Shown: positions 18,019 through 41,079 of the stretch, in pieces | How positions within the stretch are numbered: the stretch's first letter is position 1 | Layout of the letters: the number at the start of each line of letters is the position of its first letter | Assembly (NCBI GenBank): GCA_963717365.1 | Contig: OY970327.1 | Coordinates: 720,348 to 784,347 of the forward strand | Reading direction: 5' to 3' | DNA: 64,000 bases | DNA from: Candidatus Saccharimonadia bacterium | Lineage (GTDB): Bacteria; Patescibacteriota; Saccharimonadia; Saccharimonadales; 2-12-FULL-41-12 | Translations under genes and position numbers: made by a program | Notes under the pieces: model-generated | What the model saw: only the letters and a program-made list of their open reading frames with translations | The model's database searches: none | Told to the model about the DNA's origin: nothing

Positions 18019-18067
18019 GTACTATACGTCGAGTTCATTAAATTTTAATGAACTCGACGTATAGTAC
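18019..18067. repeat. 49-bp perfect palindrome, archetype of a REP-like intergenic repeat family
   Basis: gtactatacgtcgagttcattaaa t tttaatgaactcgacgtatagtac has 24-bp arms that are perfectly complementary. Located 93 nt after the rplT stop. Confidence 0.85.
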
Positions 18068-29930: not shown

Positions 29931-29979
29931 GTACTATATCTCGACTTCATTAAATTTTAATGAAACGCCGATATAGTAC
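29931..29979. repeat. 49-bp REP-like palindromic repeat copy
   Basis: gtactatatctcgacttcattaaattttaatgaaacgccgatatagtac has conserved ends and centre with mismatched mid-arms. Lies 45 nt after the rpmB stop. Confidence 0.75.
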
Positions 29980-31371: not shown

Positions 31372-32286
31372 TCAAACTTGGGTAAATTTAGAGATATATT
31401 CCATCGCTTCGTCTTCCGACTGAACCCAAATGATATCCTGGTTACGCTTAAACCACGTCTTTTGTCGCTTCGCCAGGTCTTTATCGCTCTTAACAAATAA
31501 CTCCTTAGACTCCTCAAGGCTTATCTCACCTTCAAGATGTTTACGAGCAGCTTTATATCCGGGCGTTAGTAAACCGGTAGCTTCTGAGCCATACTGGTTG
31601 ATCACATTTTGTACCTCTTTAATAAAGCCTGCGACAAACATTGTATCCACCCGTCCTTTAATCCGCTCAATCAACTTTTCACGTTCAATATTTATTCCAA
31701 GCATTAGTATGTTGGTGGGTTTTAATTTGCGATTTGGTTTCAATTTTATTTTTAAATTTTTATTGTGCGGCGAAACTTTGCTATTAATATTCACGGCAGC
31801 GGCACGTTCTACGGCGCGGCTTAAGTGCCGATGGTTCTTAAAATCAACGTCCATTTCCGCAACGCCCAGCGCCCGTGCCCGGCCTTGCAAATCAGCCAGG
31901 CTCATTGCTTCAAGTTCAGCTCGCTGGCTGCGGTCGGCTTCGCCGCCAAAATTAAAGTCATACACAAAACCGTCTATATATAAACCGGTGCCGCCTACGA
32001 TTATCGGCAGACTGCCGCGGCCGTGAATTTCATTAACTTTTAATGAAGTGTACTGTTTGAAAGCGGCCGCAGAAAAATACTGGTCCGGTTCAATTAAGTC
32101 CAGCCCGTGGTGCGGCACTACCCGCCTGTCCGCCGCGGACGGCTTCGCCGTCCCGATATCCATGCCTTTATATATAGTCCGTGAATCGGCGCAAATAATC
32201 TCGCCGCCAAACTGCAAAGCGGCGCGGATTGCCAGCGCAGACTTGCCGCTGGCCGTCTGGCCGGCAATAACGATTATCGGCTTCAC
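31372..32286 (-). CDS. miaA: tRNA dimethylallyltransferase
   Basis: P-loop IVIAGQTASGKSALAIRAA, DSRTIYKGMDIGTAKP, and overall MiaA length and motifs. Confidence 0.85.
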   Translation of the reverse strand: MKPIIVIAGQTASGKSALAIRAALQFGGEIICADSRTIYKGMDIGTAKPSAADRRVVPHHGLDLIEPDQYFSAAAFKQYTSLKVNEIHGRGSLPIIVGGTGLYIDGFVYDFNFGGEADRSQRAELEAMSLADLQGRARALGVAEMDVDFKNHRHLSRAVERAAAVNINSKVSPHNKNLKIKLKPNRKLKPTNILMLGINIEREKLIERIKGRVDTMFVAGFIKEVQNVINQYGSEATGLLTPGYKAARKHLEGEISLEESKELFVKSDKDLAKRQKTWFKRNQDIIWVQSEDEAMEYISKFTQV

Positions 32287-32890: not shown

Positions 32891-33467
32891 GGAAGTATGC
32901 CCCTACTTCTTTCCAGTTTGCTACCCGCATTACGTCAGGATGGACGATCTGCTCTGCCGACCACGCATAATTGCCAAATAACAGGGCTTTGATTCCTACT
33001 TCTGCCGCCAAATTGCAATGGTGTGGCAAATCATCTATCAGATAGTCAGCCCCAATTTGCCGACAGATATCGGCCTTGGTGATGGTATTCCCCGGTTCCC
33101 AGATAGGGACAAAATGCGTTTCGTCAAAAATACCTTTATAATGCTTTGCTATCCATTCGTGCGTAGCTTCAATGCTATACTGGTGCCGCGCCGTTATTAT
33201 TACCAATTTATATTTTTTTGACAGCTTTTTTAGTACTACATCGGCATCCGCGATTCGTTCGTAATTACTGATTGTTTCTTTATGAAACTCACCGGCCCGC
33301 TTCAGCATGACATCATAATCCAGCTTCCAGAGCTCAGGCCAGTTGTTGTTGTACTGGTCATCTGTTAGATTGGTTCCGAAGTGCTTATTACTATACGCGA
33401 TAAATGCTGGAATATGCGCAGCGATTACGTCGTCAATATCAACCCCAATCGTCTGCCTGGCACTCAT
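32883..33467 (-). CDS. HAD-superfamily 5'(3')-deoxyribonucleotidase
   Basis: IGVDIDDVIA (DxDxV motif I) and NT5C-like downstream motifs. 194 aa. Confidence 0.7.
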   Translation of the reverse strand: MSARQTIGVDIDDVIAAHIPAFIAYSNKHFGTNLTDDQYNNNWPELWKLDYDVMLKRAGEFHKETISNYERIADADVVLKKLSKKYKLVIITARHQYSIEATHEWIAKHYKGIFDETHFVPIWEPGNTITKADICRQIGADYLIDDLPHHCNLAAEVGIKALLFGNYAWSAEQIVHPDVMRVANWKEVGAYFHV

Positions 33468-35311
33468 AGTGAAGTCTTATTGACCCGCATCTTTGTTTCG
33501 TTGAAGACTGTTTTGAGGAAATCCTCTACAGCTAGCTCGGGATGGATCTCGATTGCTACTAAATCTTTACGGACGCGCGGTATTACCTGGCCGCTAGCAA
33601 TCTCTTTCTCGCCGATAACTAATGTGTAGGGCACCTTCATCAGCTCGGCATTGCGGATCTTCTTGCCTACTGACTCGTTGTCATTATCTACCGTTAAGCG
33701 GAGGTTCAGTTCCTTGGCTAAATCCTGGACCTTACCAGCGAAGGCAACGGTTGCCTCTTCTTGGTTAACGGTAATTACCCTTACCTGCTCCGGCGCCATC
33801 CAGATCGGGAATTTGCCGGCGGTGTGTTCAATGTAGACGCTTAGAAAACGCTCAATTGAGCCTAAAATAGCCTTATGGACCATGGCTGGCCGCTTGGGCG
33901 AACCATCCGAATCAATGTATTCCAGCTCAAAACGCTCCGGCTGGACAAAATCAAGTTGCACTGTGGCGCACTGCCAGCGCCGCCCCAGGGCGTCAGAGAT
34001 GTAAATATCTATCTTAGGACCATAGAAGGCGGCTTCGCCGCGCTCAATCTTATAGTCCAGCTCTTCTACTTTGGCAACCCGCTCCAAAATTTCTTCGGCC
34101 TGGTTCCATAATTCCCTCTCACCGAAGTAGTTATCACTATCGTCCCGGAATGACAGGTCCACGCTTAGCGGCAGCTCCAGCGTCATATACATCTGCTTAA
34201 CCATGCCCATAATAGACTGCATCTCCAATTCAATCTGGTCACTTCTTACAAAAGCGTGTGAATCATCCTGGGTTAACGAGCGTACGCGCGACAGCCCGTG
34301 CAACTCGCCGCTCTTTTCATCCCGATACATCGTGGTTGTTTCCATATAGCGCAGCGGCAAATCCTTATAGCTGCGCGGCCGCGACGCGTAAATCTGGGTG
34401 ACATGCGGGCAATTCATTGGTTTCATCATAAAATCATCGCTCGATTCAATACTGGAGACGTCAAACCGTTCCGGATACTTATCATAGTGGCCAGATTTTT
34501 TATAGAGTTCCACTTTGGTCATATGAGGCGCCCACACCGCTTCATAGCCGCCTGCCCGTTGCAGTTCCTCGGAAAATTTTACCAGTTCGTTCCGCAACAC
34601 CGTACCCCGCGGCGTGAACAGGGGTAATCCCGGACCAACCAGCTCGGATATTGTAAACAAATCCAGTTCTTGGCCAAGCTTGCGGTGGTCGCGTTTTTTG
34701 GCTTCTTCCAGCAAGTCAAGATATTGCCTCAGCTCCTTAGGAGTCGCAAATGCAACCCCGTACAAGCGCTGCATCTGGGCGTTCTTTTCATTTCCCCGCC
34801 AGTATGCGCCAGCAATACGCATCAGCTTAAAGGCGCCAACCTTACCGGTATGCTCAACATGCGGTCCCCGGCACAAGTCTTTAAAACTGCCATTTTGGTA
34901 AAAAGAAACTGACTCTATTTTGCTGTCTCCCTCCGCCTTTAGCCCCAGCTCAGCCGCATCCAGGTCTTTCGCAACAGTGGTACCCTCTCGCTTGAGGTCA
35001 TTCAGTAATTCTTCTTTATACGGCTGGTTGGCGGCTTGTGCCCAGCCAATAGCTTCGTCAATCGCTTGTTCACTTCTCTCAAATGGTTGATTTTCGGCTA
35101 TCACTTTCCGCATTTCTTCTTCAATGCGAGGGAAATCTTCTTCGGAAATTTTTACATCCGGCCCAAGGTCAATATCATAGTAAAAGCCATTTTCTACCAC
35201 CGGTCCCACGCCAAGCTTGGCCCCAGGCCAAAGCATCGTCACCGCGGTCGCCATAATATGCGCTAAGCTGTGGCGCATTGCTGTCTGGTCGTCTTGCTTC
35301 TGGTCTGTCAT
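33464..35311 (-). CDS. thrS: threonyl-tRNA synthetase, short form lacking the N-terminal TGS/N1 domains
   Basis: Class II aaRS catalytic core plus C-terminal anticodon-binding domain. Protein begins MTDQKQDDQTAMRHSLAHIM. ATG at 35311 is preceded by AAGGAAG. The ORF-track start at 35485 adds 58 non-homologous residues and would run through a leader hairpin and a terminator. Confidence 0.88.
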   Translation of the reverse strand: MTDQKQDDQTAMRHSLAHIMATAVTMLWPGAKLGVGPVVENGFYYDIDLGPDVKISEEDFPRIEEEMRKVIAENQPFERSEQAIDEAIGWAQAANQPYKEELLNDLKREGTTVAKDLDAAELGLKAEGDSKIESVSFYQNGSFKDLCRGPHVEHTGKVGAFKLMRIAGAYWRGNEKNAQMQRLYGVAFATPKELRQYLDLLEEAKKRDHRKLGQELDLFTISELVGPGLPLFTPRGTVLRNELVKFSEELQRAGGYEAVWAPHMTKVELYKKSGHYDKYPERFDVSSIESSDDFMMKPMNCPHVTQIYASRPRSYKDLPLRYMETTTMYRDEKSGELHGLSRVRSLTQDDSHAFVRSDQIELEMQSIMGMVKQMYMTLELPLSVDLSFRDDSDNYFGERELWNQAEEILERVAKVEELDYKIERGEAAFYGPKIDIYISDALGRRWQCATVQLDFVQPERFELEYIDSDGSPKRPAMVHKAILGSIERFLSVYIEHTAGKFPIWMAPEQVRVITVNQEEATVAFAGKVQDLAKELNLRLTVDNDNESVGKKIRNAELMKVPYTLVIGEKEIASGQVIPRVRKDLVAIEIHPELAVEDFLKTVFNETKMRVNKTSL

Positions 35312-35367
35312 AGTCACTTCCTTCTTGGTTTCCCTGTTACAGCACTTGCTTTTGCTTGCTGGCAGCA

Positions 35368-35399
35368 TTTCATTAAGATTTAATGAAACCTCGATAGCA
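35368..35399. repeat. partial copy (right half) of the REP-like palindromic repeat inside the thrS leader
   Basis: ttcattaagatttaatgaaacctcgatagca aligns with ttcattaaattttaatgaaacgccgatatagta of the 29931 copy. Confidence 0.55.
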
Positions 35400-35401
35400 A
35401 T

Positions 35402-35436
35402 AAAAAAACACATAAAGACTGGTTGTCGTTTATGTG
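35402..35436 (-). terminator. intrinsic terminator within the thrS 5' leader (attenuator)
   Basis: Minus strand reads cacataaa-cgacaaccagtc-tttatgtg followed by tttttttt, ~90 nt upstream of the thrS start. Confidence 0.65.
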
Positions 35437-35580
35437 CGTCGGTCCCTGTTAAAACGGCTTCTTGGCCGCTAAAGGGAGGTTCCACCTCGGCTTTTACTAT
35501 TGCAGCATTGGTTATCGTACGTCTGCTGCCGCTCCAACGAAGCTCCGTGGCTGGTTAGGCCGCATCACCGCTTATCCATC

Positions 35581-35609
35581 AGTATACGACGGTAGGGGAC
35601 TAAAAACAA
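35581..35609 (-). promoter_or_regulatory. candidate thrS promoter TTGTTT-17-TATACT (minus strand)
   Basis: Minus strand has ttgttt (35609-35604), a 17-nt spacer, and tatact (35586-35581). This would give a ~265-nt leader. Confidence 0.4.
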
Positions 35610-35643
35610 AAAACCTTGTGGCTTCTCGCAAATAGCCACAAGG
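35602..35643 (-). terminator. intrinsic terminator (minus strand) immediately upstream of the thrS promoter
   Basis: ccttgtggc-ttctcgcaaata-gccacaagg stem, followed on the minus strand by ttttttgttttt. Confidence 0.6.
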
Positions 35644-35904
35644 TTTAAGGTCTGCTAAAACACCTAGCAAAATTCCACCAACAAGTACCATGATAGCAAG
35701 GTTAGTATTATATGGCTAGTACTTTTGTATTGTTTTTATTACAATTCCCTAATATATGTAGGGCTCAAGGAGTTAAATGGCTAAATTCAGTAACAATTAA
35801 TAGTTCATTAAATTGTTAAAAAAGCTTATATAAATGCTCAAAATGACCACAATAATCGTTGCAAAGCGGCCATTAATCCTGTATCGTTTAACCTGTTCTA
35901 GAAA

Positions 35905-39499: not shown

Positions 39500-39576
39500 G
39501 GGCTCGTGGTGTAGAGGCCTAACATGCCTCCCTGTCACGGAGGAGATCGCCGGTTCGAATCCGGTCGGGCCCGCCA
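39500..39576 (+). tRNA. tRNA-Asp (anticodon GTC)
   Basis: GGGCTCG-TG-GTGT-AGAGGCCTA-ACAT-G-CCTCC-CTGTCAC-GGAGG-AGATC-GCCGG-TTCGAAT-CCGGT-CGGGCCC-G-CCA. Confidence 0.85.
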
Positions 39577-41079
39577 ATTCGGATTTTTGCTGTTGTGACG
39601 CAGCACAGAAAGTGGCTCTCTCACTGTTAGAGCCACTTTTTTGTTACCCAAAGTCCAGTTCGAACCTAGCATCAGCATAATTTGTCGTCGTTCGTTGTCA
39701 TTTCCATGCTTAAACGATGCACCAAGGTTCACAACGCCTGTAAATACCTCTGAAGCTAGTTCTAACCAGCGTTCGGCATCTTGAGTAGATTGTTCAATCA
39801 GTTGATTAGTTCGAGCCTGGGTTGCTTCATGCTCGGCTACACGGCTCTTGTAGCGTTCTGGTGATATGGTTCTAGTCTCTAGGGCTTCGCCCAGTGCTGC
39901 AATCTTATCAGTGGCTTCCTTGTAGTCCTTTTGCCATACAGCAAGATGCTGGTTACGTTGTTTTAGCCTCTCATCATGGTAGTTCCGTATCAACTCTAGG
40001 CATTTAGCACTCTCTTCTGCAGTCATTTCAAACTCTGACACCCGTGCTTGTATTTCAGCCTCAATAGCATGTCTGGCTAGTTGTGGCTGCTTGCAGTTCT
40101 TGACCTTACTTTTATGGGTGCAGACATAGAACTCGTAATACTCAACACTACCATCAGCGAGCGTCTTAGCTTTCGTATAGGCAGTGATATTAAATCCACA
40201 CTCCTCACAAACTAACACGCCTTTATATGGGTAATTCAGTTTGGCAGTATTTGTCCTTTTCACGGGCTTAATCCAGCCCATAGATACTTGTGCCTGGGTG
40301 TATATATCTACTGAAATTAAGGGCTCTTACGTGCCTTGTTGCCACTCTTCAGCTCCATACTTGAAAATACCTGTATACGTCCTGCGGTGCAGTAAGTCGG
40401 CAAGCGTGTTTTTACTCAAGGTTTTGCCAGACTTTGATTTCAGACCAACCGATATAGCCATCTCATACAGGTCATGCAGCGTGTATTGTCCAGTTGCTGC
40501 CGCTTTGAAAAGCTGAACTACTTTTGGTCCATCTACAGGGTCAGGAGCTATGTTACGCTCTCCAGGTTTGATGATAGCGTTTGTATAGCCTAGCGGTGCT
40601 GGTCCAGGGTACTGTCCACGGGCTCGTTTAGTCTCAAAGCCCTCTTTTACCTGTACGCTCAAGTCATCGTTATTTTTCTTAGCCAGTGCTAGTTCAATCG
40701 CAAGCACCATTTTATCGTCTGGAGTATTCCTATAGGTACGAGACGGCGTGTGTATTGCTAATAGCTTTCCTGTATCAAGGGCGTAGATAATTCTGCCGCC
40801 ATCGACAGGGTTACGGCTAAGCCTACTCAACGCCCAAACTGATATGTACCTAGCTTCTCCAAGCTCGATGCGGTCCATCTTATCGTTAAATATAGGGCGT
40901 CCTGGCTGCTTTGCACTCCGTTCTTCGGCTGGTAGGTATATGGGTATCAGGTTGTTGCGTTCGATGATGTGTTGAACTTGCGTGTCCTGCTTCTGAATTG
41001 AGAGTGACTGCCTATCTTCACGGTCCTGAGAGCGTCTCAGGTAAACAAAGGTCTTTGATTTTATGTCGTCTGGCTTCAT
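39535..41079 (-). pseudogene. large serine recombinase interrupted by a single in-frame TAA (N-terminal resolvase domain 41079-40327, C-terminal zinc-ribbon/coiled-coil part 40281-39535)
   Basis: The N-terminal ORF has a resolvase catalytic region (FVYLRRSQDREDRQSLSIQKQ) and a recombinase domain. The downstream ORF is in the same frame and has a CxxC...C zinc ribbon and coiled coil. The only interruption is TAA at 40327-40329; read through it, the frame is continuous (...QQGT*EPLISVDIYTQAQVSMGWIK...). The 3' end overlaps the tRNA-Asp 3' half. Confidence 0.7.

Follow-up and report, generated by a model that had tools for sequence, protein, structure and literature searches.

A putative minimal T-box leader upstream of thrS in Saccharibacteria

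The closest described relatives of the element considered here are the T-boxes, leaders found in a transcriptional class I (Rfam family RF00230; for example Bacillus subtilis tyrS and glyQS) and a translational, mostly actinobacterial class II (for example ileS of Mycobacterium and Nocardia). In a review of these systems (PMC7583486) Stem III, flanked in the pattern 5'-RRRxG-Stem III-AA-3', is described as indispensable. An antiterminator without Stem III binds tRNA poorly, and Stem III together with a G.U wobble rejects aminoacyl-tRNA, the wobble at the base of helix A2 being the main sensor of the 3'-aminoacyl group (PMC7583486). Truncation of Stem I is known only from the translational class, in which Stem II is reported to be essential, and a truncated Stem I without Stem II barely binds tRNA (PMC7583486). 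Here we consider the leader of thrS, the gene for threonyl-tRNA synthetase (ThrRS), on a stretch of 64,000 nucleotides (the window) of contig OY970327.1 from a Candidatus Saccharimonadia bacterium. Very probably this leader is a minimal T-box that attenuates transcription in response to tRNA-Thr. The assignment is supported by conservation among relatives, a covarying structure, a specifier that reads only Thr codons, a match between a UGGA bulge and U73 of tRNA-Thr, and the sharing of bases between antiterminator helix A1 and a terminator.

A sequence-only reading of the same DNA had already proposed a T-box-like GGUGGAACC element in the leader, alongside its promoter and attenuator. That proposal is now supported by comparative structure and not by the Rfam model. 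Almost nothing is reported to be known of how genes are regulated in the Patescibacteria, or candidate phyla radiation (CPR) (PMC11665869). Cultivated Saccharibacteria have become accessible to genetic tools, and a native RNA sensor of amino-acid starvation placed on an essential synthetase gene would provide a handle on how these host-dependent cells perceive nutrients.

Conservation and structure of the element

The comparison set comprised the upstream regions of 80 Saccharibacteria thrS loci. A block of about 112 nt (window 35586-35475; all feature positions given are on the minus strand) lies directly upstream of thrS in 62 of these (nhmmer, E 1e-26 to 4e-7). Its consensus opens with a -10-like TAnnnT, continues as AGC-NNU-GA-NGNGG-loop-CCNCN-GA-GCU and closes with the invariant GGUGGAACC. 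From 43 sequences of the block a covariance model was derived, which has a single match in the 64-kb window, at 35433-35575 (107 bits, E = 1e-23), and neither the model nor a motif count detects further copies there. The element so defined, of about 140 nt (35575-35433), is matched once upstream of thrS, on the same strand, at 63 of the 80 loci; conservation of the leader in related genomes, on which the T-box proposal had been made to depend, is therefore observed. The bare motif GGTGGNACC is by itself insignificant, having one copy in the window and at least one copy in 57 of 100 shuffles, and the T-box signal owes its significance to conservation and covariation. The features of the leader are as follows.

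35602-35646, minus strand: upstream intrinsic terminator with a 13-bp stem and a UUUGCGAGA loop, closing a separate conserved 'element X'
35581-35609, minus strand: putative leader promoter, read from the sequence, with a predicted start at about 35575-35573
35540-35573, minus strand: ultrashort Stem I (P1, K-turn, upper stem, apical loop), from covariation and RNAalifold
35552-35555, minus strand: specifier, Thr codon ACC (35555-35553) plus a conserved purine, A 35552
35502-35539, minus strand: Stem IIA/B-like pseudoknot of helices S1 and S2, with compensatory changes
35492-35501, minus strand: purine-rich linker, AAUAGUAAAA, matching the RRRxG and AA flanks of Stem III
35436-35491, minus strand: antiterminator (A1, 7-nt bulge UGGAACC, A2 hairpin)
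35402-35437, minus strand: leader terminator, GCACAUAAA...UUUAUGUGU plus U7, the two basal pairs using GC 35437-35436
33464-35323, minus strand: Shine-Dalgarno sequence AAGGAAG (35323-35317) and thrS coding sequence (ATG 35311, stop 33464)

Support for the structure was assessed with statistics that ignore phylogeny. In a MAFFT alignment made without reference to structure, pairing holds in 85.5% of pair cells as against 27-38% with slid partners, compensatory changes occur at 23 of 29 pairs, and the phylogeny-blind covariation score of 0.40 compares with 0.05-0.10 for slid controls and was reached by none of 500 shuffles. The model-fitted alignment of 52 sequences gives 87.1% paired, compensatory changes at 23 of 28 pairs and a score of 0.45, again blind to phylogeny. 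P1, the upper stem and A2 are also predicted independently by RNAalifold. The alternative that it offers to A1, pairing GUG with CAC or CGC, carries no compensatory change and was set aside. Folding of the single leader sequence is uninformative (z = -1.2).

Stem I is unusually compact. P1 pairs AAGC with GCUU (35573-35570 with 35543-35540) and leads into the K-turn, a GGU bulge (35569-35567) with tandem GA/GA (35566-35565 and 35545-35544) in which the GA dinucleotides are invariant among relatives. The upper stem, UGCGG/CCACG (35564-35560 with 35550-35546), has 4-5 bp among relatives and is capped by the apical loop CCUAACCAG at 35559-35551, of 7-9 nt in the set. Both helices show compensatory changes, at 7 or 8 of the 9 pairs depending on the alignment. 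An ACC or ACU specifier had been sought in a Stem I, and this covarying K-turn hairpin displays ACC-A, with ACU in two relatives (L052, L046) and ACG in three (L069, L013, L007), all of them Thr codons. The AC is invariant in the 43 seed sequences and the third base is mostly C. A Thr codon in every genome, with variation confined to the wobble position, amounts to the specifier-plus-purine signature of T-boxes.

Directly after P1 comes an H-type pseudoknot. In S1, CGU (35539-35537) pairs with ACG (35518-35516) about 20 nt downstream, whilst in S2 the GGCAGC inside the S1 loop (35530-35525) pairs with GCUGC (35506-35502); compensatory changes are seen at two of the three S1 pairs and at 4-5 S2 pairs. 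The segment ACGAUAAC at 35518-35511 (ACGAUAA) is F-box-like, with (A/G)CG(A/U)UAA in relatives compared to CCGUUA/CCGUCA-like sequences in the F-box itself. This equivalence is based on the Rfam alignment of an argS leader from another lineage (L088, discussed below), which places CGGG..CCCGAUA on Stem IIA and the F-box. There are zero nucleotides between Stem I and S1, and no convincing GAA/AGUA S-turn hairpin of the Stem II kind was found.

At the position of Stem III the window carries AAUAGUAAAAG and no hairpin. The region reads AAGAGUAAAAG in the window and about 47 others, and AAGUG-[hairpin]-AA-GUCCGG in nine relatives, which match the RRRxG-Stem III-AA flanks exactly. The lineage of the window has kept the purine string without the Stem III hairpin.

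In the antiterminator A1 pairs GCCGAGG (35491-35485) with CCGACGC (35442-35436), the bulge UGGAACC occupies 35484-35478 and A2, UCCCU...AGGGA, extends over 35477-35443. The segment GGUGGAAC, bulge included, is invariant in relatives. Past GGUGGAACC every locus has a variable A2 hairpin and then CCGAGAC, or a variant of it, which closes A1. The outer A1 pairs covary (GUC/GAC, GCC/GGC, GUU/AAC), as do the A2 pairs; the inner GG/CC pairs are invariant and the central two positions are Watson-Crick or purine-purine. At the base of A2, adjoining the bulge, 27 sequences have a U-A pair and 25 a G-C pair; G.U does not occur. A hairpin GAGG-UGGAA-CCUC, the flanks of which correlate, was considered as the functional form and rejected, as A1/A2 explains the correlation and has independent covariation.

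Leader layout and the proposed switch

The sequence features described in the earlier reading are all confirmed on the minus strand. The upstream terminator has a perfect 13-bp stem (35646-35611) and a U-run (35613-35602) that overlaps the -35 box, TTGTTT (35609-35604), which is followed by a 17-nt spacer and the -10 box, TATACT (35586-35581). This promoter was not recovered by a consensus promoter scan of the window because its -35 box fits only three of the six consensus positions. The -10 box is kept as TAnnnT, at a fixed distance to the element, in most of the 62 aligned relatives. The promoter and transcription start site remain putative; a start about 7 nt past the -10 box would give a leader of about 264 nt, in line with the approximately 265 nt first suggested. 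Also in place are the leader terminator, GCACAUAAA...UUUAUGUGU plus U7 at 35437-35402, the T-box-like motif GAGGUGGAACCUCC at 35488-35475, and the Shine-Dalgarno sequence with the ATG downstream.

Is there an antiterminator able to compete with this terminator? The A1/UGGAACC/A2 structure provides one, its 3' strand being shared with the terminator base in all 54 loci analysed: the hairpin plus U-run, with a median of -15 kcal/mol, starts 1-6 nt inside the 7-nt 3' strand of A1. In the window the GC at 35437-35436 is common to the outer A1 pairs and the base of the terminator. There the terminator state is calculated at -24.8 kcal/mol and the antiterminator, combined with a terminator that lacks its two basal pairs, at -22.5, whilst the terminator alone weakens from -11.9 to -7.5 on losing these pairs. 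Such a small predicted bias toward the terminator state is what one expects of a ligand-tipped switch. Given how intrinsic terminators work, opening 1-3 pairs at the terminator base, beside the U-run, may be enough for readthrough.

The bulge also matches its proposed ligand. The tRNA-Thr(CGU) gene of the window (39120-39045) ends ...AGGUGGC-U-CCA with the CCA gene-encoded, and the UGGA of the bulge is complementary to this U73-CCA (UCCA) end, the variable base N = A pairing with U73. We infer that the leader binds tRNA and discriminates charged from uncharged forms. Transcription would begin about 7 nt past TATACT and the nascent K-turn hairpin would offer the loop ACC and the stacking purine to the anticodon of tRNA-Thr(GGU), the small pseudoknot forming next. 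The 7-nt bulge UGGAACC would then be positioned between A1 and A2. With uncharged tRNA the 3' UCCA would pair with UGGA and stabilise A1, the 3' strand of which would hold the nucleotides of the terminator base next to the U-run and so allow readthrough into thrS. With charged tRNA-Thr, or none, A1 would not be stabilised, the terminator would close and transcription would stop at about 35402.

The gene downstream of the leader is confirmed as thrS, and the relatives of its ThrRS assign the window to Saccharibacteria. Its product has the class II core, the SAD editing domain and the anticodon-binding domain, without an N-terminal TGS domain, and none of nine other large open reading frames (ORFs) of the window that were tested is a synthetase. 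A mechanically called ORF (33464-35485, minus strand) starts at GTG 35485, in frame with thrS, and would encode 673 amino acids as against the real 615. A start at this GTG, and with it a coding leader, was rejected: the start in relatives is the ATG that corresponds to 35311, and the frame shows no conservation further upstream. Automated gene callers could take this open frame for part of thrS, annotate a ThrRS with a spurious N-terminal extension and in doing so hide the leader.

Weighing the T-box assignment

A number of findings weigh against a T-box. The search with RF00230 (gathering threshold 93 bits) proposed alongside the sequence-only reading gives no match to the leader, neither at the gathering threshold on the window nor at E <= 10 on 35200-35900, where a search of Rfam returns only chance matches on the terminator hairpins. 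Nor does RF00230 match in 29 relatives (20 searched at the gathering threshold and 10 at E <= 10, one in both). Parts of the T-box that are called essential, namely the distal platform of Stem I, a Stem II S-turn hairpin and Stem III, are missing, and the A2 pair beside the bulge is never the G.U that is reported to act as steric sensor of the aminoacyl group. In the window and in its closest element-bearing relative A1 contains three consecutive non-Watson-Crick positions, and the overlap of A1 and terminator is small (2 nt in the window), the two folds not being strictly exclusive. The presumed effector, tRNA-Thr(GGU), is absent from the window, within which only tRNA-Thr(CGU) is found. Finally, the presence of the element among relatives is patchy; it is missing from 17 of the 80 loci, close relatives (L003-L005) included, and although some of the 17 have an upstream flank that is cut short, others have the full flank (e.g. 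L004, L005). The Rfam failure and the insignificance of GGTGGNACC are grounds on which, taken alone, the T-box idea would fall. By Rfam and by the four architectural criteria this leader is no canonical T-box.

Intermediate forms are informative in this respect. A scan of metagenome contigs for the linker together with a bulge in which N is not A gave 24 matches. The majority are coincidences in coding regions and the real leaders are confined to four contigs (L083, L088, L089, L099).

L088 3411-3527, L089 4720-4836 and L099 3049-3130: compact T-box before argS, assigned to Candidatus Collierbacteria by ArgRS identity
L083 146-297, metagenome contig: transcriptional T-box with ultrashort Stem I, the loop AUUCCUA giving the Pro codon CCU plus A

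The gene downstream of the first three is confirmed as that of ArgRS, the protein being annotated in Candidatus Collierbacteria (Microgenomates, CPR). In common with the thrS leader, that of argS has a short K-turn hairpin ending in a small loop (AGUCGCGAC), CCCGAUAA (CCGAUAA) within its pseudoknot, no Stem III at the AAGAGUAAAAG linker, a short A2 and a terminator, and it likewise comes from a CPR lineage. It differs in the bulge, UGGUACC with N = U rather than A, and in a terminator that spans the whole 3' strand of A1. In the loop a candidate specifier, the Arg codon CGC, sits at positions 4-6, one off the thrS register, which would read GCG. L088 scores 35.6 bits (E = 4e-7) with our own covariance model and 28.9 bits (E = 0.004; threshold 93) with RF00230. 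The RF00230 alignment puts the K-turn, Stem IIA and F-box, Stem III flanks and T-box bulge at corresponding positions, with a single nucleotide where the Stem III hairpin would be. The L083 leader carries UGGU, keeps Stem II-like and Stem III-like inserts and reaches 52.5 bits with RF00230, below threshold; its downstream ORF, which is cut off, has no Pfam identification. L083 and L088 serve as a positive control for RF00230. Sub-threshold RF00230 matches to intermediates that our own model also detects argue that the element of Saccharibacteria belongs to the T-box lineage, as a diverged member, and is not a look-alike.

The discrimination of charged from uncharged tRNA is the most interesting question raised by the element. 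It is conceivable, if unlikely, that the leader binds tRNA-Thr and is blind to charging, so that it would report tRNA-Thr abundance or need a K-turn-binding protein or ThrRS as partner. Stem III and the A2 G.U wobble are indeed absent, and these are the elements that reject aminoacyl-tRNA, a Stem III-less antiterminator also binding tRNA poorly (PMC7583486). Against this, AAGAGUAAAAG preserves the purines that flank Stem III, and the bulge ACC does not vary. An esterified A76 stacking on the A1/A2 junction might be sterically excluded even without the G.U, and a switch on total tRNA-Thr would bring no obvious benefit.

Two further explanations were considered. The 170-nt unit might be a stand-alone small RNA upstream of thrS, or a decaying T-box relic with a constitutive terminator, and its own -10 box, an efficient-looking terminator, the 17 relatives that lack it and the blindness of the Rfam model are all compatible with this. 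Against such an interpretation, which we regard as highly improbable, the unit always directly precedes thrS and shares its orientation, across 63 species-level genomes, and no conserved promoter-like box occurs between the terminator and thrS, usually 13-30 nt apart. A relic is further disfavoured because the compensatory changes show that the structure is under selection. Scarcely credible is the other explanation, offered in the sequence-only reading as its alternative, of an Escherichia coli-style operator, with ThrRS acting as repressor through a hairpin of its own leader that resembles tRNA-Thr. In its favour are the identity of the gene, thrS, and a stem-loop in the leader with a loop of 7-9 nt, but this loop displays the codon ACC and not the anticodon NGU that ThrRS recognises, there is no likeness to the anticodon arm of tRNA-Thr, and the hairpin lies about 230 nt (over 200 nt) upstream of the Shine-Dalgarno sequence instead of adjoining it. 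An operator also leaves the UGGAACC bulge and the A1/A2/terminator arrangement without a role.

The T-box reading, extended to the argS leaders, suggests that stripped-down T-boxes may be a wider feature of CPR bacteria. A tentative step beyond this, to which we would give somewhat less than even chances, is that these bacteria (Saccharibacteria thrS, Collierbacteria argS) carry a natural minimal class of transcriptional T-box that senses aminoacylation without the platform, S-turn, Stem III or G.U. Such a class would read tRNA by a loop-loop codon-anticodon contact, the small pseudoknot and the NCCA-UGGN helix. If this were true, either what is accepted as the minimum for the discriminator and decoding modules would not hold generally, or a protein cofactor would stand in for the RNA modules that are missing.

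Neighbouring features and comparison with described T-boxes

Between the leader terminator and thrS the window contains a further feature.

35368-35388, minus strand: inserted palindromic repeat core, TTTCATTAA-GAT-TTAATGAAA

This had been described as a half-element resembling repetitive extragenic palindromic (REP) sequences. The core does recur elsewhere, although the flanks of the thrS copy differ from those of the approximately 49-bp palindromes. The core, TTCATTAA-N3-TTAATGAA, is found at ~18019-18067 (core ~18033), ~29931-29979 (~29945), 32028-32048 and 35368-35388, and two of the copies are palindromes of about 49 bp (GTACTATA..TCGA..TTCATTAA...). The copy at 18033 is close downstream of the gene for RNase P RNA. 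REP-like elements are one possible identity of the repeats, operators of a dimeric regulator another. The insert in the thrS leader is absent from relatives and hence lineage-specific; the distance from terminator to start codon is 81 nt in the window compared to 13-30 nt in most relatives. Other repeat-like insertions are present in the spacer between element X and thrS in L004, L040, L048 and L050.

Element X (window 35746-35606, minus strand) immediately precedes the promoter of the thrS leader. The window has only one copy and Rfam gives no match to it; 52 of the 80 loci carry it, T-box-less ones included. Promoter-like boxes (..ACA..N18..TATAAT; TGnTATgAT) precede a conserved AGGUGAAGUUUUG, after which come a variable hairpin, its loop being GUGUUUU, and a terminator with an invariant UUGCGAGA loop; element X looks like a small RNA gene of about 80 nt. 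A coding interpretation of UUGCGAGA (Leu-Arg-Glu/Asp) was rejected, neither start codon nor reading frame being conserved. This heptamer (window 35629-35622) caps the terminators of element X and about one third of the T-box terminators (e.g. L021, L024, L073, L074), admits a reading as a GCGA (GNRA) tetraloop with closing pairs U.G and U-A, and is not enriched in the window (11 copies against some 16 expected). At twelve loci with thrS and no T-box (L003, L004, L005, L010, L014, L026, L031, L038, L040, L043, L049 and L062) the gene sits 60-200 nt past the element X terminator. Elsewhere in the window a tRNA-Asp gene (39500-39576, plus strand) adjoins two adjacent minus-strand ORFs, 40327-41079 and 39535-40281, which look like the N- and C-terminal parts of a split large serine recombinase and could be the remnant of an element integrated at the tRNA-Asp gene.

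A literature search for T-boxes or natural riboswitches in Saccharibacteria, Patescibacteria or the CPR found none, although coverage was incomplete and an earlier description is possible. It likewise found no natural T-box without Stem III. The database TBDB was built from RF00230 together with a class II model run only on Actinobacteria, and leaders like that of thrS would on this basis not be in it. Given also that RF00230 is blind to these leaders, T-box counts in candidate phyla are probably underestimated. The thrS leader seems best filed as a stripped-down, unannotated T-box variant. It would represent a natural deletion series for T-box mechanics, some species keeping Stem III and most having lost it, and all Saccharibacteria forms being without the elbow platform and the Stem II hairpin, each held necessary in its class (PMC7583486).

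The similarities to class I are extensive. In common with those T-boxes the element occupies the leader of a synthetase gene, has a Stem I with a basal K-turn and follows its specifier codon with a purine. It carries a UGGNACC bulge between A1 and A2 in which N matches the discriminator base, an antiterminator and a terminator in competition, and a pseudoknot resembling the IIA/B type, in which CGAUA/CGUUA is F-box-like. The canonical class I Stem I is long, with a distal platform of interdigitated T-loops that stacks on the tRNA elbow. In contrast Stem I of Saccharibacteria stops at the specifier loop, and the distal stem of about 75 nt bearing the tRNA-elbow platform is missing. The Stem II S-turn hairpin is also absent, as is Stem III in the lineage of the window, the basal A2 pair is U-A or G-C and not G.U, and A1 has seven positions of which the central 2x2 is often purine-purine. 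Whereas the canonical terminator uses the 3' strands of both A1 and A2, that of the thrS element uses only the outer A1 pairs and leaves A2 untouched.

With the class II T-boxes of Mycobacterium and Nocardia ileS the element shares a truncated Stem I without platform, the K-turn and a downstream pseudoknot. Those leaders, however, act by sequestering the Shine-Dalgarno sequence, need an S-turn in Stem II and keep Stem III, whilst the thrS element ends in a terminator and U-run and has neither. The glyQS T-boxes offer a precedent for natural loss of the Stem II domain, attributed there to a strong GC-rich codon-anticodon duplex (PMC7583486). The ACC:GGU duplex likewise has two G-C pairs. The glyQS leaders nevertheless keep a long Stem I with the platform, and Stem III, and are without the IIA/B pseudoknot, of which the thrS element has a likely counterpart.

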